64,000 bases of DNA. Origin: Bifidobacteriaceae bacterium (GTDB lineage Bacteria; Actinomycetota; Actinomycetes; Actinomycetales; WQXJ01). The notes under the pieces are model-generated. The model made no database searches and was not told the origin of the DNA. It saw nothing but the letters and a program-made list of their open reading frames with translations. The stretch is taken from contig JAISXH010000022.1 in NCBI GenBank assembly GCA_031270825.1, positions 33,710 to 97,709 on the forward strand, written 5' to 3'. Each line of letters starts with the position of its first letter. The first letter of the stretch is position 1. Below, piece by piece: positions 1 through 17,760 of this stretch. The translations under genes and the position numbers were made by a program.

Positions 1-1
1 C

Positions 2-451
2 CTGCTCCCGGCGGCAAGCTTGGGGCCAGGGGCAATGGCGACGATTCGCCTGTACACGACTGTCAACTTGGTAGTGGCGGCCGTCAACCTGGTGCCATTG
101 GTTCCGCTCGATGGCTACCTCGCTCTACGCTCGGCTCTGGGCGTCCCCAATTTGCGGACTTTGGCGCTCGCGGCGTGGCGAGAGGCGGTCGCCAACCTAT
201 TCCTGAGGACCCGGCGATCCGCTGCGCACCTCCACCGGGGCCAGCCCGCGTGGATGGTTGCTTTTGGTGGGGCCTGCGCGGCCGCACCGTTGTTGTTCCT
301 TGTCGTTTGGTCCAGTCGCTTGGCCGCGCTGTTGCACGATCAGGCCCCCGAGACGCGATCGGCAGTTGGAATCGTCGCAATAGCCGTGACGGTGGGCGCC
401 GCCGTCATCAGGATGCGAAAAGCGCGGCGAGAACGGGTCGCCTTGAGTTGA
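2..451 (+). CDS. M50-like (site-2-protease family) membrane metallopeptidase, C-terminal fragment; gene continues beyond left edge
   Basis: Frame is open back to nt 2 (the ORF-track start at 20 is only a TTG). 'NLVPLVPLDGYLALRSALG' fits the second M50 signature (NxxPxxxxDG) and is followed by hydrophobic helices. It resembles the C-terminal half of 11605..12735 ('NLGPFRYSDGTRL'). Confidence 0.55.
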   Translation: MLPAASLGPGAMATIRLYTTVNLVVAAVNLVPLVPLDGYLALRSALGVPNLRTLALAAWREAVANLFLRTRRSAAHLHRGQPAWMVAFGGACAAAPLLFLVVWSSRLAALLHDQAPETRSAVGIVAIAVTVGAAVIRMRKARRERVALS

Positions 452-2283: not shown

Positions 2284-4113
2284 TCACGGGAACGGGTGGG
2301 GCACGAGGTTCGGAATGAAGGACTCCGGGCAGGAGCCCGAATGCGCGCAGGCCGCTTGAACAAGCCGCTGCATGGACAGAGCCCGCTGAACCGACCAACC
2401 GAAGTCGATCGGCAGGAGTCCGGGGACCACGGCCTTGACGGCCCTGACACCAAGGCGACGCAGCGGCGAGGTGGTCTGATCAACGATGACTGCTTCAAAA
2501 CCCGCCTGTTCCACGATACGAGCAAGGCCTTTCAGCGTCAGCGGCGACTGGGCGGGGGGCGTGCGAAGGCTGTGTCCGATTCGGTCGACCGGCGTCACAC
2601 GAGTGTCCTGGCGATCCAGGAGGAACCCGGCCAGTGGCCTGGCGGCCGGGTTCTTATACAGGTCCGCATGGTCCTCCAGACCGACCACCAAGTCGAAATC
2701 CTCAAGCATGGCGGCAGTTTCAGTCAGTCGCGCCTCAGTCATGCGGTGGGTTGGGGGACAGGACGGATCGAACCCGAGTCCGAAATCGGAGCAGATTTCG
2801 GCGAGGGCACCACGTACGGCCTCCTCACCTGTCGGTCTGGCGGAAGCGCCGAAACACAAGGCGCCAGTGCTTAGGCTCTCGCCGACCGCCAGTACTGTTG
2901 GAACCGGTAGCCCAACCGTGCAGTCGAACAGCCAGACGCGCTGCCCGTATAGCCGCATACGGTCCAACATCGAGACCGCAGAAGGACTCGTGACTGTGGT
3001 CTGATCCAATTCCTCCAAGGCGAGTCCGCCATACCAGGCGATGAGGAAAGAGTCCCGTTCGATTGTTTCGAGAAGTCCGTAGAAGGCGGCCTCGGCCATG
3101 GTGCCGCCCACAGCGCAACCAGAGGAAGTCTCGAAAGCGAACAGCTCCGAAGGCGGCTGGGCGCCGTAGTAGACCAAAGACTCTGGCAGCGCGACCACAT
3201 CCCATCGCTTCAACGAGAACCCTGGTGTCCACGAGATGGTGCGCGGCACTGCGAACGGCCAATCAGCGCGCGCCAGTCCGAATTCATCCGGTCCGATAAC
3301 CGGAACTGGGATCCCAGAGCCGTCACCGCGCCACCGACGGGCATTGGGCGGCGGCCGGTAGCCGGCAATACGTTCGAGCGCCTCAAGAACTGCGATCGCT
3401 TCAGAGTCCCGGTAGGTTTCGGCATGCCCTCCCCAGTGCAGCGACCAATTCTCGTGGAGCGGCCCAAGACGCTTTTCGCCTGCGACTTTGGCGGGAATTT
3501 CAGACTCGAGATCCCAGAACCAACGAGTACCTGCGACTGCGGTGGCGGGATGGACAAGGTCTTCAGGGCGGATCGCCGCAGCCTCGAATCGGTCTCTTGC
3601 GCCAGACCTCGGCCCGATGGGGCCGTCGACTGACAAATCTGACCGGTACTCGACCGGAGGGGCGACCGCCAGTAGTTCGGGGTGACAGGTCGGGTCGCAC
3701 GGCTCCGCAGAGAGCATCCGGAAGCTCTCAACACGCAACGTGAATCGGCCGATGCCGACCAAGACGGGCGAAAGTTCGCAGTCGCCAGCGAGCAGGTCGA
3801 CGACGTTCGAGACCAACTGGTCTTCCCAGGGGTTGACATGTGGTCCCCGATCCGGGTTCGGCAGCGGTTGGCCACCCTCCAGCACACGGATCTCGCAGCC
3901 AACAGACGAATCATGCCCTACTGCGTCGAGGACGCAGGGCACGCACTGAGTTCGCCCGGGGTGTGAGACGAACACGTGCGTCGCAGAACGATATAGCACT
4001 GGGCCGGACCAGCTCACGGCCAGGTCTTCAACGTGGCTACCGCGCGAAGTCGGCTCTGTGACATCGATCAGGAGCCAACGGCGCGGGTCGCCGGACGATG
4101 CCGAGACGGTCAT
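2284..4113 (-). CDS. YcaO-domain cyclodehydratase (YcaO-1) with ~230-aa N-terminal extension
   Basis: 'FAFETSSGCAVGGTMAEAAFYGLLETIERDSFLIAWYGG' is the YcaO core, and 'AVVPGLLPIDFGW' is the typical YcaO C-terminus. The N-terminal part carries CxxC ('QCVPCV') and CxxxC ('PCDPTCHP') pairs. Confidence 0.9.
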   Translation of the reverse strand: MTVSASSGDPRRWLLIDVTEPTSRGSHVEDLAVSWSGPVLYRSATHVFVSHPGRTQCVPCVLDAVGHDSSVGCEIRVLEGGQPLPNPDRGPHVNPWEDQLVSNVVDLLAGDCELSPVLVGIGRFTLRVESFRMLSAEPCDPTCHPELLAVAPPVEYRSDLSVDGPIGPRSGARDRFEAAAIRPEDLVHPATAVAGTRWFWDLESEIPAKVAGEKRLGPLHENWSLHWGGHAETYRDSEAIAVLEALERIAGYRPPPNARRWRGDGSGIPVPVIGPDEFGLARADWPFAVPRTISWTPGFSLKRWDVVALPESLVYYGAQPPSELFAFETSSGCAVGGTMAEAAFYGLLETIERDSFLIAWYGGLALEELDQTTVTSPSAVSMLDRMRLYGQRVWLFDCTVGLPVPTVLAVGESLSTGALCFGASARPTGEEAVRGALAEICSDFGLGFDPSCPPTHRMTEARLTETAAMLEDFDLVVGLEDHADLYKNPAARPLAGFLLDRQDTRVTPVDRIGHSLRTPPAQSPLTLKGLARIVEQAGFEAVIVDQTTSPLRRLGVRAVKAVVPGLLPIDFGWSVQRALSMQRLVQAACAHSGSCPESFIPNLVPHPFP

Positions 4114-4212
4114 GAAAAGATGCCTTCCGAATTAAGGACGAGGCGGGATGCGATCTGCGCACCCGGCACGGTGAAACTAGCACACTGTTCACCACCTTGG
4201 TGGCCGGCGGAT

Positions 4213-4242: not shown

Positions 4243-4250
4243 TGGCAGCC

Positions 4251-6281
4251 ATGAGTCAACTCGCATCATCGCCAGTCCTGCCGAGGGCCGCAGATCCGGG
4301 CCGGGACGGCTCTAAGTTCACCCTTCGCCTGCGCGCAGACACTATGTACAGTGCATCCAACACCGGCGTTCGATTCTCCAATGTCACGAGTTCTTTCGAA
4401 ATTGCTGGCGACCATGCCTATAAGGCGTTCAAGGCCATCGCTCCGCTGCTCGACGGTTCTTACACCCGCGAGGACTTGGCCCGCGTGCTCGGCGGACCCA
4501 TGTGGGCGAAAGTGGAGGCCTTCGTCGAGCCGTTAGTATCCCGAGGATTCGTCCGCGAGATGGATCCCTGCCCCGACGTCGAGGTCTCGGACGAGGAACA
4601 GTCCAGATTCGCCGAACAGCTTTCGTTCATCGCCCAGTTCGTTGACGATCCAAAACGCCGCTTCGCCCGGTTTCGCGACTCCGAGATCGCTGTGGTGGCA
4701 GGCGGCGCGTTCGGAGAATGGGTCGGTCATGTGCTGGCCCGCAACGGACACCGGCGCCTTGTGGTGGTTGACGACCCGTTGGTCGAGCTGACCAAGTCTG
4801 CCAGTCGGCCTGCCGTACTGGTTATTCCACCGACGCCCGCTGGGGTCAAGCTGCTGGCCGACGGTCGGCTTGGCGATCTGGCCCAGTTAGTGTTGGCGGC
4901 CTCCGCTGTGGGAGACGACATAGTCATCGGCCCCTTGTCGGCCGCCGGAACTTCTCCAGTGACGTGGGCAGATGCGATCTCAGCGATGGCAGAGCATGAT
5001 TCGGCACGCGACGTCGCCCACTACTGGGCATCAGCCTGGGCCGGAGTCCACACGGGCTCCCCGGCCACCACGCTTCCCGCAGTGCAAAGACTGGCTGGAA
5101 CCTTCGCGGCAATCGACATATTCCGGGCCCTCACCGGCATCGCGGAATCGGAGACCGCTGACTCGGTTCTGGTGGTTGATTCGGCCCACGGCGAAGCCCG
5201 GCGCCATCGGGTGGTCCCCCACCGCCAGCTACATCGATCTAGACCAACTCTGCCGCCTGCTGGTAGAGGGGTGGGGGCGCTCAGGAGGAGCGCTCCCACC
5301 ACAGCCAGAGTGTCTCCCGAATGGGGACGCGTCTGCTCAACAGTCGCCGATTCATTGACTTCTCCGATCGTGGGATTCGAAGACGGCGACCTAGAGCAAC
5401 TGCCGGTCAAGGTATCCATCGCTCGCCTGGCGCTGGGCACGGCCGGGAGCGTTGCCGTGGGAGCGGCTGACCTGTGGGATGTCGCGGGGGCACGCGCTCG
5501 AGCTACCCGTCAGGCGTTGGCGTTGCGATTGGAGACCTGGGCCCCGTGGGAGGAATCCGACGGCCTTTTCAGGGGCCCTGATGTGGTGAGCGAGCTGGAC
5601 GGGATGATTGAGTCGAACGCTCGGTCCGTCGGGCCGCTGGTCCAAGGACGCGATCTGATCACCGACGACCTGGTCTGGGCGCCAGCGGCGGCGTTGGCCA
5701 CCATGTCCCTCGCCAATGCATCGGGCGTGTTCGCCCGGTCGGCCCTCGGCATAGGCGTCGGCTTGGACTACGACGAGGCCTTGGAGCGGGCTATCTCTTC
5801 AGCGGCCTCGCGCCGGGCGGTGTCCACGTTGGAGAGGCCGAGCCTGCCTGTGATTGATCTGGCCGATGAATCGCCGGAAGGTGTCTTCCTTCGCGAAAGC
5901 GCGAAACATGCTGGCGTGGAGATCGAAGTCTTGCGTGCGGGACGGCATCTTCAGCGCGATGTGGTGGTCGCACGGTGCCGGAGCGGGAACACGGCTCTGT
6001 GGGAGCTGGGGACCGGGCCGAGTGAGCACGAGGCGTGGGCGTCGGCGGTTGTAGGGGTCCTCGGGGCGGTCCGCAGAGCTCAGGCGGGCAAGCCACATTC
6101 CACTTGGACCATGACGGCCCTGCCCGCCTTCGATGCCATGGCCCTGGTGGCGGGTGTCCCCCAGGACAATCCGGGCGACGAGGCGCGAGCGTTCGCCTTT
6201 GACATCACGACTGACGAGGTGTCGGCGCTGGGCGTAGTTGCAGTTAAGGTGCTGACCGCAGCTGGGGAGGCGGTCCGATGA
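4251..6281 (+). CDS. TOMM/thiopeptide-type leader-binding docking protein (RRE + ThiF/E1-like, 'ocin-ThiF-like')
   Basis: N-terminal PqqD-like pattern 'IAPLLDGSYTREDLARVLGG...FVEPLVSRGFV'. Rossmann-like 'IAVVAGGAFGEWVGHVLARNG'. About 676 aa, sited between a YcaO and a SagB-type gene, with its stop overlapping the next ATG (ATGA at 6278). Confidence 0.65.
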   Translation: MSQLASSPVLPRAADPGRDGSKFTLRLRADTMYSASNTGVRFSNVTSSFEIAGDHAYKAFKAIAPLLDGSYTREDLARVLGGPMWAKVEAFVEPLVSRGFVREMDPCPDVEVSDEEQSRFAEQLSFIAQFVDDPKRRFARFRDSEIAVVAGGAFGEWVGHVLARNGHRRLVVVDDPLVELTKSASRPAVLVIPPTPAGVKLLADGRLGDLAQLVLAASAVGDDIVIGPLSAAGTSPVTWADAISAMAEHDSARDVAHYWASAWAGVHTGSPATTLPAVQRLAGTFAAIDIFRALTGIAESETADSVLVVDSAHGEARRHRVVPHRQLHRSRPTLPPAGRGVGALRRSAPTTARVSPEWGRVCSTVADSLTSPIVGFEDGDLEQLPVKVSIARLALGTAGSVAVGAADLWDVAGARARATRQALALRLETWAPWEESDGLFRGPDVVSELDGMIESNARSVGPLVQGRDLITDDLVWAPAAALATMSLANASGVFARSALGIGVGLDYDEALERAISSAASRRAVSTLERPSLPVIDLADESPEGVFLRESAKHAGVEIEVLRAGRHLQRDVVVARCRSGNTALWELGTGPSEHEAWASAVVGVLGAVRRAQAGKPHSTWTMTALPAFDAMALVAGVPQDNPGDEARAFAFDITTDEVSALGVVAVKVLTAAGEAVR

Positions 6282-7924
6282 GAACCACCGCGGGCCACAT
6301 GCGGACCGCCGAGGAGCCGTTGGCTTACCCAGGCGCCCGGCCGGGAACGGCGCTGACCGAACTCGGCGAAGACTGGCTCTCGATTCCCCTAGGAAGTGCG
6401 GCGCGTTGCTACGCCGACCTGATTTTCGATCGCGCCGCCAGCGGCATGCCGATCAAGAAATGGCCTGTCGACTGGGACGACGCACCGTGGCCGCAGAAGT
6501 TCTACCCGGCGGCGCAATTCACCAGTTTGCCCGATGTCGCACAGCCTGGAGGGTTGGCGGACACGGGTCGGGTGGAACTGGGTCGAGCCTTGTGGGACCT
6601 GATGTTCTATGCCTATGGGGTGGTGGCGCGACGCAGTCGAGTCAACAACAACGAGTCCACGGGCATGCTCATCAACGCCGAAGAGATCCGCTGGGGCCGG
6701 GGGGCTTCTTCCGGTGGAGGACGATACTGCGCCGGGGTCTATGTCGTGATCGGTCAAGGCCTCTCGCTGAGTTCGGGAATTTATCACTATTCGCCCATTT
6801 ACCACGGCCTTGAACTGCTTGCCGGAGGCGACTGGACCGGCGCTGTGGCCCACGCTCAAGGTTATGGCGCCGCCCAGTCTTGCTACCTGGTGATCTCGCT
6901 CAAATACTGGCAGTCAGCCTTCAAGTACAACGATTTCGCCGCTCAAGCGACCTGCATGGACCTGGGCACGTTGATGGGGACGTGGCGCTATCTCCTGGGA
7001 CCGTCTGCTGACATGATTCAGCCGGACCTGTGGGTGAACGAACCAGCCCTAGCCGGCATCCTGGGCATTGATTCGCAGGCCGAAGCCGTCGCCGCAGTCC
7101 TTGGCCTCGGCGGCGTCACCGCTTCACCGGTCGCCGCCAGACCCGCCCCAGCCATGCCGCAGGCGGACGAACGTTCCCGAGAGGTCTACACATTTGTCAC
7201 CCAGCGGGCGTTGCAACGCGATGCCCTGGCCGAGCGCGGGGTGCCGGCCGATTTGTCTGCGGACTTCCCGGTCCCGCAATCCCTAGCCTGGTCGGTCGAG
7301 ATCGATGCTGATGCCGCCGGCAGGATCGCCTCCACCCTTCGGCGCGAGACATCATTCGGGCGGTTCGATGGGATTCCGCTTCCGCGCCGCGCCCTGCTAG
7401 AGGCCCTGATCGAAAGCGACACGGCCCAGAACGTGACCGCCGGGACGTTCTCTGGGGCAAAGGATGGGGCTGTCAGCCTGTTCGTGTTGGTGAAGGGGGT
7501 CGAGGGTCTCGCTCCGGGCTGTTATAGGTACGACAGACCAAGTCAAGACTTGGAGCGAATCGGGGGACAGGAAGCAATGGCAGTCATTCAGCGACGCTAC
7601 TTTCTCAACAACTACGACCTGGGCAGGGCAGCTGCGGCAGTGATTTTCGCCGGAGACGTCGTAGCGGTCGCGGAGCGGTACGGAGTGCGCGGATACAGGG
7701 CCCTCAACACCGCTGTGGGCGCCGTCTGCCAACACCTCCATCTTGAATGCGCCCGAAGAGGGATAGGAGCGGGCGCCGCGCTCGGGGTCGACGCGGCCGC
7801 CGCAGCGGATGCTCTGAAGTTGGGGCGCAAGAGGCCCCGGCCGCTGCTGACCATGTTCCTCGGCCATGACCGACCGAACTCGGGTGCCCTCGACGTCCCA
7901 CTCGCTCCCGAAGGAAGCAGGTGA
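6278..7924 (+). CDS. SagB/ThcOx-type FMN-dependent azoline dehydrogenase (nitroreductase fold, two lobes)
   Basis: 'WGRGASSGGGRYCAGVYVVI' and second-lobe 'IQRRYFLNNYDLGRAAAAVIFAGD...GYRALNTAVGAVCQHLHLEC' resemble SagB-family motifs. Its context between the docking protein and LanB supports the call. Confidence 0.75.
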   Translation: MRTTAGHMRTAEEPLAYPGARPGTALTELGEDWLSIPLGSAARCYADLIFDRAASGMPIKKWPVDWDDAPWPQKFYPAAQFTSLPDVAQPGGLADTGRVELGRALWDLMFYAYGVVARRSRVNNNESTGMLINAEEIRWGRGASSGGGRYCAGVYVVIGQGLSLSSGIYHYSPIYHGLELLAGGDWTGAVAHAQGYGAAQSCYLVISLKYWQSAFKYNDFAAQATCMDLGTLMGTWRYLLGPSADMIQPDLWVNEPALAGILGIDSQAEAVAAVLGLGGVTASPVAARPAPAMPQADERSREVYTFVTQRALQRDALAERGVPADLSADFPVPQSLAWSVEIDADAAGRIASTLRRETSFGRFDGIPLPRRALLEALIESDTAQNVTAGTFSGAKDGAVSLFVLVKGVEGLAPGCYRYDRPSQDLERIGGQEAMAVIQRRYFLNNYDLGRAAAAVIFAGDVVAVAERYGVRGYRALNTAVGAVCQHLHLECARRGIGAGAALGVDAAAAADALKLGRKRPRPLLTMFLGHDRPNSGALDVPLAPEGSR

Positions 7925-7928
7925 CCTA

Positions 7929-10547
7929 ATGGAAGTGCTAGTAGACGAATACGTTCAATCTCGCGTCGCGGGTCTACCGGCACCTGTCTTGGCGAACCTG
8001 CGCACTAGCGCGGCGCTGCGCTGGGTCGGCGACCTTGACCAGGCCGAAGCTGCGCTGGCCGAGGCGGTTGAGGTAGCTACCGACGGTCTGTATGAGCTGA
8101 TCGGGAAAACAGATCGCGGTGTTGGGCGCAAGCACCTGGTCGAATTGCGCCGTAACCTGCATAACGGTCGCTACGACCGGGCGCGAGACAACCTGGACCG
8201 CGCTCCGGTGAGAGTACAGGAAACCGCTGCGGCCCTCGCCGAACCCGTATTCGCCGCCGCCAAGCGGCTCAAGGGCCTAGCTGAAATTGGCGAAAAGGCC
8301 TACCAGAACTGGCTCTTGGAAGAGCGACGCGGGCTGGGGAATCTCCTTGAAGAAGATGACTTCGCCCGCGGAATCGCCGTGGCGGCCCCGGCGGCGGCGA
8401 AAGACTTTCTCCGCTACCAGAAGGCCAGCGTGACGGGAGACGCCCTGACCAAGAACCAGCGTAAGGCAGAACGCAGCCTGCTGCAATATGCACTGCGCAC
8501 GGCCGCGAAAACATCTCCTTTCTCGAGCCTGACCCGCGTGGCCTTAGTGCGATGCGCTGACGGGGCCGCCAGGGATGACAGCGCCGAGACGCAGACCGTC
8601 GACGTCTCCCGGCCTTCGGTATACCCGATCTGCATCGCGCTCGATGCCTTGGGCCGGGACGAAGACGCCATCCTCCCGATGCGCGTCATGATAGCTCCAA
8701 TTATCGCAGAGGAGATGGACAACATGATCGTTGTCTATCGCTCTGAGTACGATTTTTCTGAAGCGACCGGAGAGGCCGACCAGGCGTCGGTTGTTGAATC
8801 GCTGGTGCGGATCGAACAGGGTCAGTTGTGCCGCATTGTCAAGGATGCCTACGAAGCCGGACATCGAACGGTAGCCACGCTAGTGGGTGCCATGGTCGAA
8901 TTGGGAATCACTCGAAAGACGGCGCTGGGGGCTATCCTCGAGCTGATCCGTCTGGGTTTTCTGATAGTTCCTGACCTGCGTTTTCACCCGCACATCGGCA
9001 CGGAAGCGACTCTCAGTTCGGTGGTTCGAAGGATCGACTCGCTCAAGACTGGAGAAGTAGGCCAAGCAGTCGCCGAATATGTCGATATTGCAGAATCGTT
9101 CTCCCATGTGGCCGACCTTTCCGAGCGCACATCCAAGATCGACTCGATCCGTGGGGCGGTGGAGCGTCTATACCAGGTCTCTGGTTGCCCTGGCGCACCG
9201 GTTCCCCATTCTGTGGTTTATGAAGATTCCGGACTGCTTGGCATTCGCGAACTACCCCGGTCCACGTTTGAGTTTGGTGGCGTCGACCGTCTCTTCACAT
9301 TGGCCGACATCCTCGACGACAACCAAGTTCCACGAGCGCTCCTGCGCGGGTTCTTCCTGAAGCTTTATGGGCCCGAGGGGCGCTGTCCCAACGTGCCGGC
9401 GTTCCTCGACGCCTTCAAGTCGGAACTGTACAACTCGTATCTCGGGCGAGATGACTCGAGTATTCGACGTGAGGCCGTCGCTTGCGATCCTTGGCTGCGC
9501 TGGGGTGAAGCTTGGCGATGGGACTCTGCTCGCGCCAGGTTGCTGGACCTCGTCGCCGCGGCGCCTCCCGAGGGGGGGCAGGTGGACATAGAGGAGTTCA
9601 TGGCGCCGGGTGGGCCGGTCATGGAATTGATGCCGGATGTCGTCTTTCCCTTCCGGCACATCAACCTGTTCGCCCAGATTGCTGAGGGCGGCACCCTAGT
9701 GGTCAACAACAGCTTTGGGGGGCCTGGCTTCGGCTTGTCGCGCTTTGCGCACCTCTTCGGAGGCGACGGAGAGAAGTGTGTCCGCTCGGTCGAACAGTTG
9801 GCCCGTTCGGCCGGAGTCTCCCTTCACGAACTACTCGGCGGCGCGGCAGTCACGAACCTGAATTTGCATGGTCCGCTGTTGGACGCTGAGTTGCGAATGC
9901 CAGGTGATCCCGAGGGGTCGCGGGCACGGCGGAGGACCGACATTTTCGACCTAGACCTCATTTACCGGGGCAGCCAACAACGGCTGGCGTTGGTCCACCG
10001 GTTCAGCGGCGAAGAGGTGATGCCCACGTACATGGGCTACCTGGTTCCTTTCGCCACTCCCACTTCCCATCAGTTGATCAGTCTGCTGGCACCTCCAGTC
10101 ACACTGGGGCGGGGCCTTTGGCGGGAGGAACAACCCACGAACGATCTGGAACAGGTCAAGGCCCGTCCCCGCGTGGTGATAGGCAACCGAATAGTTGTCA
10201 GCCGCGCCGCGTGGGACGTTCCCGCAGGATCTATTCCGGCGGAGGATCCGACATCTCCAGCCGGCCTAGTCGAGTGGCACCGCCGGTGGCGGTCGTTGGG
10301 ACTGCCTGACCTCTCGTACGTAACTATCAAGGACTCGTCGTCCAAGCGGCCAAAGCCCCGGTTCTATGACACGAGTTCGCTTCTCGCCTCGGCAACGCTA
10401 GCTCACGAATGGCGCACACGAGGCGGGGTTCTTCGGGTCACGGAGGCCCTTCCGGTCCCACCGCTACTGGACGACACGAGCAAGGCCCGAGTCGAAGAAT
10501 TCATCGTAGGTTTCAGCGCAATCGAAAGAACGGAGGAAGTGATATGA
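7929..10547 (+). CDS. Lantibiotic-dehydratase N-terminal (glutamylation) protein, split-LanB type
   Basis: 872 aa. 'LQYALRTAAKTSPFSSLTRVALV' and 'HINLFAQIAEGGTLVVNNSFGGPGFGLSRFAHLF' look like Lant_dehydr_N. The ATG at 7929 follows GAAGGAAGCAGG. The ORF-track start at 7866 overlaps the SagB gene. Confidence 0.8.
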   Translation: MEVLVDEYVQSRVAGLPAPVLANLRTSAALRWVGDLDQAEAALAEAVEVATDGLYELIGKTDRGVGRKHLVELRRNLHNGRYDRARDNLDRAPVRVQETAAALAEPVFAAAKRLKGLAEIGEKAYQNWLLEERRGLGNLLEEDDFARGIAVAAPAAAKDFLRYQKASVTGDALTKNQRKAERSLLQYALRTAAKTSPFSSLTRVALVRCADGAARDDSAETQTVDVSRPSVYPICIALDALGRDEDAILPMRVMIAPIIAEEMDNMIVVYRSEYDFSEATGEADQASVVESLVRIEQGQLCRIVKDAYEAGHRTVATLVGAMVELGITRKTALGAILELIRLGFLIVPDLRFHPHIGTEATLSSVVRRIDSLKTGEVGQAVAEYVDIAESFSHVADLSERTSKIDSIRGAVERLYQVSGCPGAPVPHSVVYEDSGLLGIRELPRSTFEFGGVDRLFTLADILDDNQVPRALLRGFFLKLYGPEGRCPNVPAFLDAFKSELYNSYLGRDDSSIRREAVACDPWLRWGEAWRWDSARARLLDLVAAAPPEGGQVDIEEFMAPGGPVMELMPDVVFPFRHINLFAQIAEGGTLVVNNSFGGPGFGLSRFAHLFGGDGEKCVRSVEQLARSAGVSLHELLGGAAVTNLNLHGPLLDAELRMPGDPEGSRARRRTDIFDLDLIYRGSQQRLALVHRFSGEEVMPTYMGYLVPFATPTSHQLISLLAPPVTLGRGLWREEQPTNDLEQVKARPRVVIGNRIVVSRAAWDVPAGSIPAEDPTSPAGLVEWHRRWRSLGLPDLSYVTIKDSSSKRPKPRFYDTSSLLASATLAHEWRTRGGVLRVTEALPVPPLLDDTSKARVEEFIVGFSAIERTEEVI

Positions 10548-11608
10548 CTTCCCAATTGACACCCATCCGAGCATCCTTGATCGGCCGGCGGCCCGAGTGG
10601 CTATCGTTCCACATTTTCTATGGCTCCAACCCGCTTGGACTCCTCACCCGCTGTGTCCGCCCGCTCGTCCACCAGCTCAAGACTGAAGGCAAACTGGAGC
10701 GGTGGTTCTACATTAACTATTGGCTAGAGGGCAACCACATCCGCTTGCGCCTAGGCGTCCCGGACAAGGCGACCGCGACAGAAGTCGAAATGCGGGTCAC
10801 TGTAGCTGTGGAGGAATACTTGGCGCTCAACCCCTCTTTTCATCCGGCAGCCGAATTGGAGTCGACGGACTATTACGCTGAGCTGTTCGAGGCCGAGTTT
10901 TCCGCAGAAGAACGCGGGCAATACTTCAACGCCGACGGCACGCCAATACTGCAGCCGGACAACAGCGTTCGGATACGCCGTTACGAACCCGAGTGGGACC
11001 GCTACGGAGGCGCCAAGGGCGTTGAGATCGCAGAGGAGCACTTCGAGCTCTCAGCGGAGATCGCCTCCAAACTCATAGCTAAAGGGAACATGTCGGTGCG
11101 CAGCTTCCAGCTCGGTGTCGGCGCCGAGCTTATGGCTGTTCTTGTCGGCGTCCTGTTCCCGAATCCGGCCACCGGGCGGGCCTTCCTTGAGAATTATCAC
11201 GCCCGCTGGAGTGGCATGTTCGGCACGACGAAGAACTATGTTGAGCGCCACAATCAGGGACGGTTCACCGACAATCGCCGCGTCATGATGAACCATGTGG
11301 TCCCCGTGTGCCAGGCCGCACGGGCCGGTGGCCACGGCCTCACAGGTGTGCTCAAGGAATGGCACGACGCTGTGACTCACACGCGCAACCGTCTGGAGGA
11401 CGTAGGCCGGAACGAGGAGTTGCGCTTCGCTTGGGAAGGAGGCGAGGAGACCACCAGCGACATTGACCGCCTGTGCTGGCGGGAGGGCTTTTCGCTTCAG
11501 CACATGATGGACAATCGCCTCCTGCTGTCGGTCTCTGATGAGGCTTATCTGTCTTTCGAACTCCTCAAAGCGCTTGAGACGGCGGATGTGGATGAGGTGG
11601 CAGTATGA
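10544..11608 (+). CDS. SpaB_C / thiopeptide-type bacteriocin biosynthesis domain protein (glutamate-elimination enzyme or [4+2] pyridine synthase; not distinguishable by eye)
   Basis: 'WLSFHIFYGSNP...LERWFYINYWLEGNHIRLRL' is the characteristic N-terminal pattern of the Lant_dehydr_C family. ATGA overlap with the LanB stop at 10544-10547. Confidence 0.75.
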   Translation: MTSQLTPIRASLIGRRPEWLSFHIFYGSNPLGLLTRCVRPLVHQLKTEGKLERWFYINYWLEGNHIRLRLGVPDKATATEVEMRVTVAVEEYLALNPSFHPAAELESTDYYAELFEAEFSAEERGQYFNADGTPILQPDNSVRIRRYEPEWDRYGGAKGVEIAEEHFELSAEIASKLIAKGNMSVRSFQLGVGAELMAVLVGVLFPNPATGRAFLENYHARWSGMFGTTKNYVERHNQGRFTDNRRVMMNHVVPVCQAARAGGHGLTGVLKEWHDAVTHTRNRLEDVGRNEELRFAWEGGEETTSDIDRLCWREGFSLQHMMDNRLLLSVSDEAYLSFELLKALETADVDEVAV

Positions 11609-12735
11609 ACCGCACAGCTGACGCGCGAACTTGGAGCCCGAGCCTCTCGGACCGCCTATTGATTGGACCACCCACGTGGAACGGCGGGGCCATGACAGCT
11701 GAGATCGCCTTGGCGGGAGAAGCTCGAACTTGGAATGCTGGCCTGCTCGAACTCCTCGTTTTGGAGTCGATCGACGGCGAACGCGACATCCCCGCCATTG
11801 CGGCACACGTATCTGAACGGACCGGCCGTGCGGTCGAAACCGGGATGGTTGGTCAAGTCGTCGGACGGTTGGCGGTCAACGGCATCGTACAACGTGACTT
11901 GGGTGTGGAGACCGAATCGATGCGCCAGGCGGACGCTCGATCCGATGAAGCAGCGAAGGCGATGGACGGCGTCGAACGCATCGATCAGGGGCTCTTTGGA
12001 ACGCTATCTAGTGCCATGTGGAAGCTCGGACGGCGCCTTCCTACCGTCGGGATCGCTTCGGTGGCGGCCGGCGCGGCTCTTGCCGCCGTAGCACTTTTCG
12101 CCGTGAACGCTGATGTCTACCTGGCAGCGTTGCGAGCTGTGCGCCATGGGCGGGCGGCCGATGCCGTGATCGCGCTGGTGGCGTGCCTCGCCTGGCAGCT
12201 CCTAGTTATCGTGGCGCACGAATTCGCTCACGGACTGACCTTTAGTTCGATCAACATCCGCCGGCCAGTCCTTGCGCTAACCAAAGTCGGGCGCAGGACC
12301 CTGCCCAACACTCAGCTAGACGGACTGTGGCTGGTGCCTTCCACCGCTCGGCGGCTAGCTGTGGTGGCGGTCGGCCCGCTCATCTCAATCTCATCGGCGA
12401 TCGTGCCCGCTGCCGTGCTCGTGGTCACAGCGCCAAGCTCGCTCTTGGCTGACTGGGCGGTATTCGCCCTAAGCATGGAAATCCTAATGGCCGTCCTCAA
12501 CCTGGGCCCATTTCGCTATTCCGACGGCACACGGCTTATCGAATCCTGGGCGAGGTGTCGCAACCTGCCGGCCCTCGCTGTCGCAAGGGTCGTGGCTAAA
12601 CAGCCGCTCCGGGCCGGTGTCCCCAGGCGGGCCCGCCGCGCCATCGCCGCCTACCTGCCCGCGTCAGGTCTCAGCTCGCTCTTGCTGCTTGCAGCGGCCG
12701 CCCTGTGGGTCTTGACCGTACTGGGGGTCGTCTAA
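11605..12735 (+). CDS. Fusion of a PqqD-like (RRE-type) N-terminal domain to an M50-like polytopic metallopeptidase
   Basis: 'HEFAHGLTF' (HExxH) and 'NLGPFRYSDGTRL' (NxxPxxxxDG) with at least 5 hydrophobic helices. The N-terminal 'LLELLVLESIDGERDIPAIAAHVSERTGRAVETGMVGQVVGRLAVNGIVQ' follows the PqqD/RRE pattern. ATGA overlap with the preceding gene. Confidence 0.7.
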   Translation: MNRTADARTWSPSLSDRLLIGPPTWNGGAMTAEIALAGEARTWNAGLLELLVLESIDGERDIPAIAAHVSERTGRAVETGMVGQVVGRLAVNGIVQRDLGVETESMRQADARSDEAAKAMDGVERIDQGLFGTLSSAMWKLGRRLPTVGIASVAAGAALAAVALFAVNADVYLAALRAVRHGRAADAVIALVACLAWQLLVIVAHEFAHGLTFSSINIRRPVLALTKVGRRTLPNTQLDGLWLVPSTARRLAVVAVGPLISISSAIVPAAVLVVTAPSSLLADWAVFALSMEILMAVLNLGPFRYSDGTRLIESWARCRNLPALAVARVVAKQPLRAGVPRRARRAIAAYLPASGLSSLLLLAAAALWVLTVLGVV

Positions 12736-12768
12736 CGCCCCATTCCCCGCGAAAGCGGAACCCAAAGC

Positions 12769-12790
12769 TTCGAGGCCACCAGGCCTCGAG
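12769..12790 (+). other. Stem-loop between peptidase gene and precursor gene (plus GNRA hairpin CCGCgaaaGCGG at 12747-12758)
   Basis: tTCGAGGCC-acca-GGCCTCGAg forms an 8-9 bp stem with a 4-nt loop. No T-tract follows. Confidence 0.35.
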
Positions 12791-12868
12791 GGGGCAGCGG
12801 GCCAGCCGGTCCGCGCCAAAACCTGAATGATCCGGGCCAATTGGCCCCAGAACCACAAAGGAGCACCC

Positions 12869-13048
12869 ATGTCCAACACCGATATCGCGGGCCTTGCCGC
12901 CGAGCTTGACGCTCTGAACGCCGAGACGCTGGAAGTCAAGGATTACGTCGACTACTCCGACGCAGCCTTCGCCTCAAGTTCGTCCTGCAGTTCGACCACT
13001 TCCACGTGCTCGTCCTGCAGCTCGACATCGTCGTGCGCCGCGCTGTGA
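12869..13048 (+). CDS. RiPP precursor peptide (59 aa): acidic helical leader + Ser/Thr/Cys-only core
   Basis: The ATG at 12869 lies 7 nt after AAAGGAG. Sequence: MSNTDIAGLAAELDALNAETLEVKDYVDYSDAAFA-SSSSCSSTTSTCSSCSSTSSC-AAL. It sits inside the biosynthetic operon, directly upstream of the ABC exporter. Confidence 0.85.
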   Translation: MSNTDIAGLAAELDALNAETLEVKDYVDYSDAAFASSSSCSSTTSTCSSCSSTSSCAAL

Positions 13049-13058
13049 CCGGCCGGCA

Positions 13059-13130
13059 CCGACAGTAGGCCGCAATGGCGGCTGTCGGAGGGGTCCGGGC
13101 GCGGTCTAGGCCGTTCTAAACCCCTCCGAC
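13059..13130 (+). terminator. Two mutually exclusive stem-loops immediately after the precursor stop (possible partial terminator / mRNA-stabilising hairpin)
   Basis: CCGACAG(13059-13065)/CTGTCGG(13082-13088) competes with GTCGGAGGGGT(13084-13094)/ACCCCTCCGAC(13120-13130), which is an 11-bp stem. No clear U-tract. Confidence 0.4.
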
Positions 13131-13174
13131 ACCGCCTTGAACCGCAGTTCGATTCCTACAAGAGGAGGCACGCA

Positions 13175-14173
13175 GTGAGCACTTCCGGCCTAGCGCTATT
13201 CATGGGCAACAGTCGTGTGCGAGACCTTTCCGGCAGCCCGATCCAGGCGAAACCGCCGAAGGCCGACTCGCCCGCCATCGCAGCACGAGGCGTCAGCAAG
13301 ACCTACGGGACCGTGGCAGCCCTGACTGACGTGGATCTCGAGGTCGCCCCCGGCGAGTTCTACGGGCTAATCGGGCCTAACGGAGCCGGCAAGACCACTC
13401 TGATGGAGATTATCCAAGGGTTGCTTGCCGCAGATTCGGGAACCATTTCGATACTCGGCGGTAGACCCGCCGACCGTTCTCCGGCGCTCCTGCGCCGGGT
13501 TGGCATCCAGCCCCAGAACACCGCTTTCTTCACGCGGGCGACCGCCCGTGAACACCTAACAACACTGGCCGACATCTACAGGGTTGAGCGGCGCCGAGTC
13601 GACTCGACGCTCGAGGCTTTCGGATTGGTCAGCGCGGCAAAGACGCGCGTGGACAAACTCTCGGGCGGAGAACGCCAGAAGCTGGCCGTGGCTTCGGCGA
13701 TGCTCCACGACCCGGAAGTGCTGTTCCTGGATGAACCCACAGCCGCGATGGACACCGAGTCGCGGGCCGAATTGGTCCACATGCTTAAGGGCCTTCGCGC
13801 CGGAGCGACCACCGTTCTTTACACCACCCATCTGCTGCACGAAGCAGAACGTCTGTGCGACCGGATCGCCATTCTTGACCACGGACAGATCATAGCGAAT
13901 GACACACCCGCTCAGTTGCTGGCTGATTCAGGTTTGCCTAGCCGCATCATTCTGCCGCTGGAGGCCGGCCGACTGGACCGGATCAAGTCCCTTCCCGAAG
14001 TGTTGGAAATCGACCTGCGAGACGGGCAGGTCGAAATCGCCGTCATGGCGGCAGGACCGGCGCTGGCCGCCTTGGTTCGTGCCGGTCTGGACGTGTCCGA
14101 CGTCCGTGTCGAGGCGGCGACTTTGGAAGACGTCTTTCTACGGCTCTCTGGAAAGGAGCACCACGATGAATAG
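13175..14173 (+). CDS. ABC transporter ATP-binding protein
   Basis: Walker A 'GPNGAGKTT', signature 'LSGGERQK', Walker B 'VLFLDEPT'. The GTG at 13175 follows AGAGGAGG. Confidence 0.95.
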   Translation: MSTSGLALFMGNSRVRDLSGSPIQAKPPKADSPAIAARGVSKTYGTVAALTDVDLEVAPGEFYGLIGPNGAGKTTLMEIIQGLLAADSGTISILGGRPADRSPALLRRVGIQPQNTAFFTRATAREHLTTLADIYRVERRRVDSTLEAFGLVSAAKTRVDKLSGGERQKLAVASAMLHDPEVLFLDEPTAAMDTESRAELVHMLKGLRAGATTVLYTTHLLHEAERLCDRIAILDHGQIIANDTPAQLLADSGLPSRIILPLEAGRLDRIKSLPEVLEIDLRDGQVEIAVMAAGPALAALVRAGLDVSDVRVEAATLEDVFLRLSGKEHHDE

Positions 14174-14909
14174 CTTTGTGTCTCTGGCGAGGGCGCAAGG
14201 GCGAGCCAGCCTGCGCGATCCCGCGACGTTGTTCTTTACTTTCCTCTTCCCCGTCCTCCTGCTGGTGGTGTTCTCGCGGGCGTTCGGTCAGGCGGCGGGG
14301 CCTGATGGTGTTCTCGCGATGCAGGCGGTGGGCCCGAACGTGGTGGCTTTCGGCGCCGCCTATGTTGGGATGTTCACGGCTTCCCAGTCGCTGGTCGAGT
14401 GGCGCGCATCCGGAATGAGCCGGGTCCTTTTCGCCGCGCCGGTCCGAACCGGCGGAGTGCTGGCTGCGAATCTGGCGGTCGGTCTGGCTTTGGGGCTCGC
14501 CCAGGCCGGGATCCTGGTGGCGTTGTCCGTGTTGCCGGGCCTCAACATGTCGCTGTCCGCTAGCGCCTGGCTGGCCCTACCAGTCGTGACGCTGGGCATA
14601 GCGGCCTTCTTCAGCATTGGCATGGTGATAGGGGCGCTGTGTAAGACGGTGGCGTCAGCCGCAGGTGCGATCAACGCAGTCGTTTTACCCATGGCCTATG
14701 TCTCTGGCGCTATGCTCCCGGCGGAACTCTTGCCGGACTGGGCCACTGCGATCGGTCGCGCTCTGCCGATGCGCTATATGGTCGAAGCGATTGGCGGCAG
14801 CCTGACCGGAGTGGCGCCGTCGTCCACGATCGGTCTGGGAGCAATCGTCTTGGCTGGGGTCGCGGCATTATTCTTTGGTGGCGCCACGAAGATCGTAAAA
14901 TGGCTGTGA
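14166..14909 (+). CDS. ABC-2 type transporter permease
   Basis: The ATG at 14166 overlaps the ATPase stop. Six hydrophobic segments, and the size and position are typical of ABC-2 exporter permeases. The ORF-track start at 13899 lies inside the ATPase gene. Confidence 0.8.
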   Translation: MNSFVSLARAQGRASLRDPATLFFTFLFPVLLLVVFSRAFGQAAGPDGVLAMQAVGPNVVAFGAAYVGMFTASQSLVEWRASGMSRVLFAAPVRTGGVLAANLAVGLALGLAQAGILVALSVLPGLNMSLSASAWLALPVVTLGIAAFFSIGMVIGALCKTVASAAGAINAVVLPMAYVSGAMLPAELLPDWATAIGRALPMRYMVEAIGGSLTGVAPSSTIGLGAIVLAGVAALFFGGATKIVKWL

Positions 14910-14912
14910 CCA
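14763..14912 (+). repeat. Left copy of 150-bp direct repeat (3' end of permease gene + first codons of YcaO-2)
   Basis: Hand alignment to 18127..18276 shows 5 mismatches in 150 nt. Confidence 0.9.
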
Positions 14913-16600
14913 CGCCGGCTGAGACTGGCGCTAAATGGATCCGCCGCCTTGGATTCGACACCGTTCTAGTTCACCCGGCACCGGCCAAGGACGCTCTTGG
15001 CTTCGAGCAGGAGCTGCAGCGGCGATCAGCCGACCTCGCCGAGAAGTTTGTTTTCGCAGGCGGCTCCGATGCTGGTGGCCGTGAGCTGACAAACGGGCCA
15101 AGCCGTTTTCCTGGTGCCAGCGGGTTGGCCGACGCGGTCCAGGATTTCGCCAACGAGTGCGGACTGTGGCAAGGGTCCAATGACGAGGCTGTCCTATGGC
15201 CCGTGCTTGAGATCGACTCGCGGGCCTGCACCCTCAGGCGCTTCGGCATCCGAACGGCTCCGAGTGACGGGTTGCGGGCAGTCAGCCCCGACCCTGGCCG
15301 TCGCGGCGGGCTGTCGCGCGAATCCCCTCTGGAAGCACTCGATCTCCCTCCAGACGTGGCGGCCGGACAGGGTTTGGGTTACCTCGGTAACACCGGCGCA
15401 TGGGGCCTTGAGTGGACCACGGCCGCACCGGTTTCCGACAAGGTTTGGATCGATGTCGGTGGAAGACCCTTTGAATTGAACTGGTCAGGACACGAGAACA
15501 CTTACGAACTGTCGTTGCGGTCATGCGTGCTGGAAGGATTGGAGCGCACGGCTGGAGCGCTTGGCGGCGGAACGCAGGTCGTTGTCTCCCCTGCGGTTGA
15601 ACTCGACGCGAGGTTCATGTCCCCCGGCGCGTTCGGACGCTACCCGGACTCCGCGTACGAGCATGAGCTGGTCGCGTTCGATCCAGCAGAGAGCCATGAG
15701 TGGGTGGAAGCACAGAGTCTCACGAGTGGCGAACCCGTGTATGTGCCGGTGGAGCTGGTGCATTATGGACGTCACGTTGCGCGCCGTTGGGCCTTTGGCA
15801 CGTCCTCAGGTTGGGCGGTCGGTTCGACATCGGAAGAGGCGGCATTCTTCGGACTGGTCGAGCTTCTCGAGAGAGACGCGATTGTCTCCAGCTGGTACGG
15901 TGGGATCTCCCCGACGCCGGTCAACGCGTCAACCGTGGAAGAAGTTCAAGACATATTGTCCAGGGCCGCTCTCCTCGACTGTCAGTTTCATGTCAGCCAA
16001 GTCCCATCTCAAATCGGGATGCCCGTCATGGTCGCGGTTGCCAAATCGCCGGAGGCCGCCGTGTTCGGATCGGCTGCACATCCCGATCCGCGCCGGGCTT
16101 TGATCGGCGCGGTCAACGAGGCCTGGGCCTACTTGCCGGAGAGGGAACGCACGGCGCGGAGGTTGCGGTCTAGGGGCCTCCTGCCGAAGGCGGGGCCAGC
16201 TAACGTGGAAACCATTGACGACCACGCCTCGTTGGCATTCGAGCCAACCCTCCTGATCGGCCTGGACAGATTCACGCATGACGACAGCATCGCCGGGTTC
16301 CCCGTCGGCGACATAGGGCCTTGGCATCCAAACGCCCTGGCCGAACGCGGACCTCTGGGCGCAGCAGTCGATCAGTTGGCCGGACACGGTCTCGAGGCTC
16401 TAGTTGTCGCAGCGTCTTCTCCGACAGCCCAATCCATGGCTGTCCATGTGGTGGCATCTCTCGTGCCCGGTCTGGTTCCAATCGATTTCGGATATCGCCG
16501 CCAACGGGCGCCGCAGATGGACCGAATCCTCGAACTGGCTGAGCTGTTCACCGGGCAGCGCCCCGAAGCGCCGTGGCCCGAACTCCACCCCTTCAGCTGA
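14900..16600 (+). CDS. Second YcaO-domain protein (YcaO-2), stand-alone
   Basis: 'WAFGTSSGWAVGSTSEEAAFFGLVELLERDAIVSSWYGG' and C-terminal 'SLVPGLVPIDFGYRRQRAP'. The start overlaps the permease stop by 10 nt. Confidence 0.9.
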   Translation: MAVTTPAETGAKWIRRLGFDTVLVHPAPAKDALGFEQELQRRSADLAEKFVFAGGSDAGGRELTNGPSRFPGASGLADAVQDFANECGLWQGSNDEAVLWPVLEIDSRACTLRRFGIRTAPSDGLRAVSPDPGRRGGLSRESPLEALDLPPDVAAGQGLGYLGNTGAWGLEWTTAAPVSDKVWIDVGGRPFELNWSGHENTYELSLRSCVLEGLERTAGALGGGTQVVVSPAVELDARFMSPGAFGRYPDSAYEHELVAFDPAESHEWVEAQSLTSGEPVYVPVELVHYGRHVARRWAFGTSSGWAVGSTSEEAAFFGLVELLERDAIVSSWYGGISPTPVNASTVEEVQDILSRAALLDCQFHVSQVPSQIGMPVMVAVAKSPEAAVFGSAAHPDPRRALIGAVNEAWAYLPERERTARRLRSRGLLPKAGPANVETIDDHASLAFEPTLLIGLDRFTHDDSIAGFPVGDIGPWHPNALAERGPLGAAVDQLAGHGLEALVVAASSPTAQSMAVHVVASLVPGLVPIDFGYRRQRAPQMDRILELAELFTGQRPEAPWPELHPFS

Positions 16601-16648
16601 CGGTAGCCAACTTGGCTGAGCCGCCTGGAACCAACGAAAGACCGAAAC

Positions 16649-17275
16649 ATGCATGACACCGCAGCCTCGCAGGCATCCGTCGTAAGCGTGGACGCGCAGC
16701 CGTCCTTCCGGATCCCTAATCCCGCCGTGGTCTTACGATGGGCCACCCTCTACTACGCGATCGCGGCGGCCGTCGCCCGTCCGGTGATCGGCGGGTTGGC
16801 TGCCGCCGTCGCAGTAGGCCTGGCTTGGGCACCGCCGATCCCGGGCTTCGGGACAGCCCGACAAGGCCTTGAGGTCAGTCCTGTGGCTGCGCCGGAGTCC
16901 TCTCACCGTGTCCCACGGCGGCTTCGTCAAGCGGTGCTTGCCACCTCCTGGCTTGAAGCTGTGGTGTTCGGCGCGGGAGGACTGGTCTCTTGGGCCGTGG
17001 ATGAGTTGGCCGCTTGGCCCATCGCAGTCGCGGTGGCCGCCACCTGCCATATCACAACTGTCGGCCTGGTCGCACGGCGGATCATTGACGCGTTCGCCCT
17101 GCCGATCGCCTGGGCGTCCTGCGTGGCAGCACTGGCAGTCACCGTACAAGACGGCCACCCCTTGCGTGGTTGTGCGATCGCTGCTGCGACACTCGCCCTG
17201 GTCACCGCGAGTTATGCTCGCCACATCGGTATTCGGGAGACTTCTTCCAAGGCCGAGGACGGTGGCTTGCGATGA
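16649..17275 (+). CDS. Hypothetical integral membrane protein (about 4 TM helices)
   Basis: Ala/Val/Leu-rich hydrophobic segments. Its stop overlaps the next ATG (ATGA at 17272). I recognise no motif. Confidence 0.5.
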   Translation: MHDTAASQASVVSVDAQPSFRIPNPAVVLRWATLYYAIAAAVARPVIGGLAAAVAVGLAWAPPIPGFGTARQGLEVSPVAAPESSHRVPRRLRQAVLATSWLEAVVFGAGGLVSWAVDELAAWPIAVAVAATCHITTVGLVARRIIDAFALPIAWASCVAALAVTVQDGHPLRGCAIAAATLALVTASYARHIGIRETSSKAEDGGLR

Positions 17276-17760
17276 GCGGGCTGCCGATCCGCGTGGTGAC
17301 GTTTTCCCGACACGGTTCCACCGATGAGGTGGGCAGGTGGGTCGCGCGATCCTTGGCGGGGTTAGTTGATGCTTCGGTCTACCAAAATGATTCGACCGGC
17401 GATCCGGAGACAGGCCTTGGCGCGGCGAGCAGGGTTGTGGTCGGAATGCCTGTCTACGCCAACCATTGGCGTCCGGAGGCGCGGCGCTTCCTGAACCGCT
17501 GCGCGTCAACCTTAGGGCAACGGGAGGTCTGGCTCTTCACCTGTTCGCTCGGCGGTGGCTTGGACGACCTGGACCACCTCGAGCCAGAGCTTGTGCCAGT
17601 AGGTCTAGCCCATTTCGGAGGCAAACTGGACTGGGATCGTCTGGCCGTCCCCGAGCGCATGCTGATGCGGGCCCTCGGCCAAACGTCGTGCGATCGGCGC
17701 TCGCGCGCGGATGTCGAAGCCTGGGCCGCTTCGATTGTGCGAACTGCGGCGTTGACCTAG
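17272..17760 (+). CDS. Flavodoxin-like domain protein (HemG/flavodoxin_5-like)
   Basis: 'IRVVTFSRHGSTDEVGRWVA' resembles the flavodoxin phosphate-binding loop. About 162 aa, with 'VVVGMPVYANHW' and 'VWLFTCS' beta-strand patterns. Confidence 0.55.
   Translation: MSGLPIRVVTFSRHGSTDEVGRWVARSLAGLVDASVYQNDSTGDPETGLGAASRVVVGMPVYANHWRPEARRFLNRCASTLGQREVWLFTCSLGGGLDDLDHLEPELVPVGLAHFGGKLDWDRLAVPERMLMRALGQTSCDRRSRADVEAWAASIVRTAALT

Follow-up and report, generated by a model that had tools for sequence, protein, structure and literature searches.

Introduction

How is the leader removed from a ribosomally made peptide when its gene cluster encodes two YcaO cyclodehydratases, an azoline dehydrogenase and a split LanB dehydratase, and no recognizable pyridine synthase? 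The question is raised by a cluster in a 64,000-nucleotide stretch of contig JAISXH010000022.1 (positions 33,710 to 97,709, forward strand; assembly GCA_031270825.1) from a Bifidobacteriaceae bacterium. The whole of this stretch is called the window here, and positions are counted from its first nucleotide. A gene at 11605..12735 on the plus strand encodes a protein of 376 amino acids, in which a recognition element (RRE) of the kind found in pathways to peptides that are ribosomally synthesized and modified after translation (RiPPs) is joined to a membrane protease of the M50 or site-2 protease (S2P) type, according to its open reading frame (ORF), its translation and an AlphaFold2 (AF2) model. 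A preliminary description of the window, made by a model from the sequence, took the protein for a leader-guided intramembrane peptidase. This has been kept as the best reading of its fold, its motifs and its genetic linkage, from which the function is deduced. We put at roughly 0.7 the probability that the protein, as it appears from sequence and predicted structure, would be the dedicated leader peptidase of the adjacent ribosomal peptide.

The RRE-S2P design is not new. An RRE fused to the N-terminus of an intramembrane site-2 protease was the marker by which the daptides were discovered, and in that report removal of the daptide leader is ascribed to one such protein, MpaP, an intramembrane peptidase described as RRE-dependent (Ren et al., 2023, PMC10036551). 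Membrane M50 proteases also process other modified peptides, namely the epipeptides (EpeP) and the pearlins (TglG and TmoG) (PMC10885120). The authors of the preliminary description were not aware of an RRE-M50 fusion in a characterized thiopeptide or linear azole peptide pathway. The architecture has its precedent in MpaP, but in our literature search no paper was found that names an M50 enzyme for YcaO/split-LanB azole peptide chemistry. The protein considered here belongs to a distinct subfamily that is tied to this other RiPP chemistry.

A recognition domain joined to a membrane protease

Judged from profiles and from the predicted structure, on which the domain assignments rest rather than on family scans of the single sequence, the RRE-M50 fusion is real. 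The AF2 model was built from an alignment of 17 sequences and has a predicted local distance difference test score (pLDDT) of 88.6 and a predicted template modeling score (pTM) of 0.85; an earlier model from four sequences, with a pLDDT of 48.8, was set aside. The PqqD-like RRE occupies residues ~9–96 (11629..11892, plus strand). The preliminary description had proposed a check of this fold with AlphaFold, and a winged-helix N-terminus of the β3α3 type was obtained, with strands at residues 18–25, 30–36 and 42–46 followed by helices at 47–55, 62–73 and 79–91, the block having a pLDDT of 88–96.

When the model was compared with the PDB by Foldseek, the top high-probability matches were RREs: TigE (probability 1.00), TbiB1, PqqD and SuiB. 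TbiB1 bound to its leader (5v1u, 5v1v) was matched with a target-normalized TM-score of 0.67–0.71 and a root-mean-square deviation of 3.4–4.2 Å, and PqqD (5sxy) with a target-normalized TM-score of 0.55. The E-values of these RRE matches, 0.3–1.6, are weak because the whole two-domain model served as query. A profile of the N-terminal domain gave weak sequence-profile support in the same direction (PaaA, E 0.002; PqqD, E 0.3), and generic winged helix-turn-helix (wHTH) proteins such as FurB were also among its matches. The PqqD/RRE pattern claimed earlier is borne out by the fold and by the structural matches, but the sequence of this protein alone has no match to PqqD (PF05402) in a Pfam scan. 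Five of 25 relatives match that model, weakly (best E 0.018), and a few match the ApyI and lasso-PqqD models. With the stand-alone and fused RREs of lasso peptide and other RiPP pathways (TbiB1, PqqD, PaaA, TigE and SuiB) the domain has the β3α3 winged helix in common at a sequence identity of 8–15%. Its partner is not a cysteine protease, a radical S-adenosylmethionine (radical-SAM) enzyme or an E1-like enzyme but a membrane protease, to which it is joined through a variable linker of about 30 residues. The linker (residues ~97–128; 11893..11988, plus strand) has a pLDDT of 54–58, differs in length among relatives, and has a mean pairwise identity in the subfamily of 19.6%, compared with 32.7% for the RRE and 31.2% for the protease domain.

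The membrane core extends from residue ~129 to 376 (11989..12735, plus strand) and, from hydropathy, the AF2 model and hhalign, has five predicted transmembrane helices and a β-hairpin at 222–237. Hydrophobic segments are found at about 147–170, 186–209, 249–275, 283–300 and 352–376. The zinc-binding and catalytic motif HEFAH (H205, E206, H209; 12217..12231, plus strand) lies within the second of these and within AF2 helix 184–216. The motif NLGPFRYSDG (residues 299–308; 12499..12528, plus strand), which comes after AF2 helix 280–300 and includes the predicted third zinc ligand, D307, aligns in hhalign with NLLPFxxLDG of daptide-type relatives. In an alignment of 28 relatives H205, E206, H209, G257 and D307 are invariant, as is E49 in the RRE region, where G46 is nearly so. 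The protein scores 13.2–14.6 bits against Pfam Peptidase_M50 (PF02163), below the gathering cutoff of 27.2, and a sequence and profile search of the PDB with a four-sequence alignment gave no matches. Arginine and lysine residues are concentrated in the loops 217–246 and 307–345, with K140, R143 and R144 preceding the first transmembrane helix, so that a topology with the N-terminus inside the cell fits, the zinc site being near the cytoplasmic face. This is the topology of other S2P enzymes. The RRE is accordingly predicted to be cytoplasmic.

The reading frame given in the preliminary description contains the features quoted from it: the N-terminal sequence, HEFAHG at residues 205–210, NLGPFRYSDG and several hydrophobic helices are all present in the translation. 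At 11605 the ATG start shares bases with the TGA stop of the preceding LanB C-terminal (LanB_C) gene (ATGA), with GAGGTG a few bases upstream, in agreement with the translational coupling that had been claimed, and the precursor gene starts 134 nucleotides downstream, so that the position claimed just upstream of the precursor was also correct. The public call for the identical protein (P0001; LBS27_04020, a hypothetical protein of a Bifidobacteriaceae metagenome-assembled genome, or MAG) is 347 amino acids long and starts at Met30. In the AF2 model the 29 residues it omits (11605–11691) make up the first two β-strands of the recognition domain; they are conserved both in P0003, a homologue with 51% identity, and in distant relatives (W10, P12, G21, P22 and W25). 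Because this N-terminus is conserved and the ATGA overlap is present, the 376-residue frame is taken as the real gene. The public annotation is thereby corrected: its start is 29 codons late and cuts into the recognition domain.

Relatives of the protein

Few full-length relatives were found in sequence collections. A word-indexed search of 5.8 billion proteins returned three with the protein itself as query and five with the 17-sequence profile. An exhaustive HMMER search of 1.84 billion representatives gave 66 proteins at E ≤ 1e-3; besides fragments, these include 16 full-length matches of 350–380 residues with E-values of 1e-27 to 1e-42. By these sequence criteria the subfamily is distinct and rare, with about 16–20 clusters at 50% identity, and falls below every curated model. 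In the wider set Peptidase_M50 is matched by 14 of 28 relatives (best E 2.4e-14). The NCBIfam model NF041824, for the daptide biosynthesis intramembrane metalloprotease, is matched by 19 of the 28; in the example given the scores do not exceed about 134 bits, against an equivalog cutoff of 300 bits; the protein itself has no match to it even at E ≤ 10. Weak matches to NF058609, the YydH/LiaK family epipeptide maturation metalloprotease, are found in 13 of the 28 and are limited to the catalytic core, for example residues 186–309 of P0023.

The closest ties are with the daptide enzymes. When a profile of the close subfamily was aligned by hhalign with ten NF041824-positive relatives, the probability was 99.8% (E 3e-29) over 342 columns, and residues 9–367, that is both domains, were covered. 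MpaP/DapP and the present protein have in common the two-domain architecture, a size of about 370–420 residues, the motifs HExxH and NxxPxxxxDG, and a presumed role in RRE-guided leader removal. They differ in that the protein is about 20–25% identical to the NF041824-positive group. The clusters differ as well. Those of daptides encode an aminotransferase, an alcohol dehydrogenase and a methyltransferase, with precursors ending in Thr, whereas the cluster described here is without the daptide enzymes and its precursors end in Ala or Leu. From EpeP/YydH the protein differs in having no match to NF058609, and the settings are also different: a radical-SAM epimerase accompanies EpeP, and TglG and TmoG belong to peptide aminoacyl-tRNA ligase (PEARL) systems, while YcaO and LanB enzymes are encoded here. 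TglG and TmoG cut at the C-terminus, whereas the present protein is proposed as a leader peptidase.

The precursor and the conserved gene set

The precursor gene (12869..13048, plus strand; GGAG upstream of its ATG) encodes 59 amino acids, consisting of the leader MSNTDIAGLAAELDALNAETLEVKDYVDYSDAAFA and the core SSSSCSSTTSTCSSCSSTSSCAAL. It passes the NCBIfam cutoffs for thiazolylpeptide precursors (NF033400, 40.3 against 30; TIGR03892, 36.6 against 25). The precursors have in common an acidic and very strongly conserved leader, …LAAELDxFxxETxEVKDYVDYS(D/E)xAF(A/G), followed by a core of 24–31 residues, nearly all of them Ser, Thr or Cys, with CA(T/A/V)(A/L) at its end, as in STCSSSSSSSCSSTCTSCCSSTSSCATA. 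Between two MAGs the precursor is 97% identical, whereas the protease is only 51% identical. GC-rich inverted repeats lie on either side of the precursor gene on the plus strand, one at ~12768–12790 (TCGAGGCC-ACCA-GGCCTCGA) and one at ~13086–13130 (TCGGAGGGGT…ACCCCTCCGA); no T-tract terminator was called at these repeats, and they may be stem-loops that set the ratio of precursor to enzyme transcripts.

Homologues of the fusion gene were followed in 15 related loci, from a second Bifidobacteriaceae MAG, metagenomes, Brevibacterium, Rothia, Corynebacterium sp. MSK297, an Actinomycetaceae MAG, Arthrobacter sp. G119Y2 and two Microbacterium genomes. In all 15 the homologue overlaps the stop codon of LanB_C. 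A homologous precursor lies directly downstream of it in 13; in L007 the precursor is upstream on the opposite strand, and in L028 none was found. L003 has its precursor at 11123–11314, and four loci (L021, L024, L026 and L027) have two precursor genes each. The preliminary description had asked whether the fusion might be common outside RiPP clusters, with no small-peptide neighbor. For this subfamily the 15 loci give a clear answer in the negative.

In the window the gene set comprises YcaO cyclodehydratase 1 (2284..4113, minus strand; Pfam YcaO E 3e-58, TIGR03604) and, all on the plus strand, an ocin-ThiF-like protein, a possible leader-binding partner (4251..6281; TIGR03693 E 2e-12, TIGR03882 E 0.003), a SagB-type azoline dehydrogenase (6278..7924; TIGR03605 105 bits, Pfam Nitroreductase), the two LanB proteins discussed below, the protease, the precursor, a drrA-like ABC (ATP-binding cassette) ATPase (13175–14173; Pfam ABC_tran), an ABC-2 permease (Pfam ABC2_membrane; the longest ORF is 13899–14909, with the true start probably near 14170) and YcaO cyclodehydratase 2 (14900..16600; Pfam YcaO E 8e-55, TIGR03604). 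Twelve loci extend far enough upstream for the order of these genes to be read, and in all of them it is F-like protein, YcaO, SagB, LanB_N, LanB_C, protease; those that reach far enough downstream continue with one or more precursors, ABC, ABC-2 and the second YcaO. In the C-terminal half of the ocin-ThiF-like protein (residues ~457–587) there are faint matches of the YcaO type, and the protein may be equivalent to the "D fused to C" protein of coryneazolisin clusters.

A linear azole peptide cluster rather than a thiopeptide cluster

Several traits of the cluster are thiopeptide-like: a thiazolylpeptide-type precursor, YcaO with a dehydrogenase, and a split LanB dehydratase. An assignment to the thiopeptides fails on the LanB proteins, since there is one SpaB_C-type gene, which has elimination residues, and no [4+2] enzyme was found. 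The N-terminal protein, LanB_N (7866..10547, plus strand; Pfam Lant_dehydr_N), is a TbtB-type glutamylation protein. It matches the glutamylation-only TbtB (6ec7, E 6e-18) up to the C-terminus of the latter, and no elimination domain was found inside it (hhalign probability 0.4%). The C-terminal protein, LanB_C (10544..11608, plus strand; Pfam Lant_dehydr_C E 1e-35), is encoded by a gene coupled on both sides, by an ATGA overlap with LanB_N at 10544–10547 and by that with the protease gene. Its residues are numbered here from the longest ORF, 10409–11608 (399 amino acids). In alignments to NisB and MibB, R114 in the motif hVRLRL corresponds to NisB R786, R198 in RYGG to R826, and H365 in IHMTNNR to H961. 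From structural work on NisB these three residues are known to be required for glutamate elimination. In TbtD the R786 position is occupied by Tyr, and the other two motifs are unaligned. The 399-residue protein was considered as a pyridine synthase and rejected, with 78.7 bits against a cutoff of 325 for TbtD_PbtD and the elimination residues retained.

When the 64-kb window and nine related loci were searched with a hidden Markov model of the LanB_C family, no second SpaB_C-type ORF came up, even with the limit relaxed to E ≤ 10. Since the sole SpaB_C protein keeps the NisB elimination residues, it is assigned as the eliminase, and a recognizable pyridine synthase is lacking. On this sequence evidence the cluster is of the goadsporin/coryneazolisin-like linear azole peptide type and not a true thiopeptide cluster, and its product is probably linear. 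It is the ring-forming enzyme that expels the leader in true thiopeptides (PMC10885120); with no pyridine synthase, a leader protease is therefore required.

The coryneazolisin clusters have been described as encoding two YcaO proteins and split lanthipeptide-like dehydratases, with no [4+2] enzyme, and linear azole/dehydro peptides have been predicted as their products (Cox et al., 2015, PMC4603692). Compared through that published description, the present cluster resembles coryneazolisin and goadsporin in the YcaO pair, the split LanB, the lack of a [4+2] enzyme and the core rich in Cys, Ser and Thr. The coryneazolisin core consists of 10 Cys/Ser/Thr residues, Ile and 5–7 Cys/Ser/Thr residues, compared with the cores of 24–31 residues given above. 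The paper, which was the sole published description of such clusters found in our literature search, names no protease, whereas the cluster here includes the RRE-M50 gene. Membership in the "dehydrazole" class was considered and rejected, that class having a DUF4135 dehydratase, an NHLP leader and an S8 peptidase.

Proposed function and alternatives

The protein is the only candidate for the leader protease because the conserved gene set has no other protease, and since there is no second SpaB_C gene, a leader-ejecting pyridine synthase is not available as another route of removal. In the proposed pathway the cytoplasmic RRE (residues ~9–96) would bind the conserved acidic leader, …LAAELDxxxAETxEVKDYVDYSDxAF, and so tether the modified precursor to the five-helix M50/S2P core, whose zinc site (H205, E206, H209, D307) would lie within the bilayer, close to its cytoplasmic side. 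Through the action of both YcaO enzymes, the dehydrogenase and the split LanB, the Ser/Thr/Cys core would become a hydrophobic chain of azoles and dehydro amino acids. This core would then enter the membrane-embedded site, the leader would be cut off, probably just after AF(A/G), and the DrrAB-like ABC-2 transporter would export the product. The analysis shows the fold, the motifs, the homology to the RRE-S2P peptidases, the strict linkage of the genes and the lack of a pyridine synthase; leader binding, catalysis, the site of cleavage, topology and the coupling to export are all features that we infer.

It is conceivable, at a good deal less than even odds, that the membrane-embedded active site acts as a checkpoint of modification. 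Before modification the core, made up of Ser, Thr and Cys, would be too hydrophilic to enter the bilayer, and only a nearly fully converted, hydrophobic core would reach the zinc site, with the RRE holding the leader in the cytoplasm. Release of the leader would in this way depend on the physical chemistry of the product, which would then be handed directly to the ABC-2 exporter.

Several points weigh against the assignment as leader peptidase. The protein passes no curated Pfam or NCBIfam threshold and gave no match at E ≤ 0.01, and scans of its two halves were of no more use. No solved S2P structure was among the Foldseek PDB matches of the model, and the support for that model, with its alignment of 17 sequences, is modest. 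The evidence on the protein and its close relatives is computational throughout. Leader removal by MpaP is itself, so far as the account of it in the daptide report goes, an assignment and not a biochemical demonstration (PMC10036551). The ocin-ThiF-like protein may read the same leader too, and the conserved C-terminal tail CA(T/A/V)(A/L) could be the real target of cleavage.

This last point leads to an alternative that is improbable, though it deserves more weight than those that follow, in which the protein would be a leader-guided tailoring protease that cuts elsewhere. It could trim off what follows the last Cys at the C-terminus (AAL, ATA or AVA), instead of the leader or besides it, in the manner of the M50 enzymes TglG and TmoG, which release C-terminal residues, or degrade the leader once another enzyme has freed it. 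Every precursor does end in C-A-(T/A/V)-(A/L), and this tail is not modifiable. Against it, the group nearest in homology, that of the daptide-type RRE-peptidases, has been assigned to leader removal, and the conserved cluster would then hold no candidate for the leader peptidase. The preliminary description had raised another possibility, that of an immunity factor. A membrane protein for immunity or for assistance in export, in which proteolysis was not the main role, would bind the peptide and either shield the producer or pass the peptide to the transporter. The protein is indeed polytopic and encoded beside an ABC-2 transporter, and EpeP is thought to aid export besides cleavage (PMC10885120). 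We regard this as quite unlikely. That neither the zinc ligands nor the catalytic Glu vary among 28 divergent relatives speaks for catalysis having been retained, and the ABC-2 pair and a conserved hydrophobic 208-residue ORF downstream are more conventional candidates for immunity. Immunity is unlikely also because an RRE predicted to be cytoplasmic would read the leader, which is gone from the mature extracellular product.

Most of the M50 proteases that have been characterized, such as RseP and SpoIVFB, are regulatory, and the wHTH proteins among the N-terminal profile matches could be taken to mean that the N-terminus is a generic winged helix and not an RRE. The protein would then be a regulatory site-2 protease that cleaves, for example, an anti-sigma factor or a membrane regulator in control of the cluster. 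There is very little to commend this. The three-stranded sheet ahead of the helices is the arrangement of an RRE, and RREs are the best matches by structure. The conserved gene set includes neither a sigma factor nor a membrane-anchored regulator; the MerR proteins are soluble and their genes are present only in the Bifidobacteriaceae loci. The start/stop overlap with the dehydratase gene, seen in all 15 loci, also speaks against a regulatory protease. The dedicated leader peptidase thus remains the preferred assignment.

Other features of the window

The preliminary description had stated that the fusion is present twice in the cluster. There is a genuine M50-like C-terminus ending at 451, but it is not a second copy belonging to the cluster. 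The separate fragment (2..451, plus strand) is the C-terminal 149 amino acids of a protein cut by the edge of the window, with its N-terminus, where an RRE would be looked for, lying outside, and carries the motif NLVPLVPLDG. It matches NF041824 with 82 bits over model positions 249–370 of 379 and Peptidase_M50 with E 4e-4, and has no significant BLASTP similarity to the 376-residue protein (E 9). Two MerR genes, at 453–1337 and 1387–2265 on the plus strand, separate it from the cluster. In the five loci with upstream flank (L003, L004, L005, L007 and L028) no second M50 gene was found upstream of the cluster, and a word-indexed search retrieved no homologue of the fragment. By sequence the fragment is of a different subfamily and is not a conserved member of the cluster. 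It may mark a neighboring, different RiPP system beyond the window.

Downstream of the second YcaO gene is the hydrophobic 208-residue ORF (16649–17275, plus strand), which has no family match and could encode an immunity protein or a membrane partner. ORFs of 178–192 residues follow the second YcaO in L001, L003 and L006; sequence similarity to the 208-residue ORF was detected for L001 only. Next come a flavodoxin-like gene (about 17170–17760, plus strand) and housekeeping genes at 18438–20588 and 20767–22530 on the minus strand. The G+C fraction of the cluster region (1–18000) is 0.605–0.651, compared with 0.65–0.73 in most of 22000–50000, which would be consistent with horizontal acquisition. 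In L003 and L004 the homologous cluster is flanked by transposase genes.

Significance

From its precursor and LanB genes a cluster of this kind is otherwise prone to be mislabeled as a thiopeptide cluster. With the protein described here, a candidate leader peptidase is named for widespread linear azole/dehydro peptide clusters, which occur in Bifidobacteriaceae and Actinomycetaceae MAGs and in Rothia, Corynebacterium, Brevibacterium, Arthrobacter and Microbacterium. Corynebacterium and Rothia are genera known from human skin and mouth. In obtaining the mature product by heterologous expression, the usual bottleneck is to know which enzyme removes the leader. The RRE-site-2-protease architecture extends beyond the daptide class, and if the membrane-embedded site does act as a checkpoint, the RRE-S2P would be a portable, class-independent module that cuts only when modification is finished and then allows export, serving the daptides as well as these peptides of Actinobacteria.

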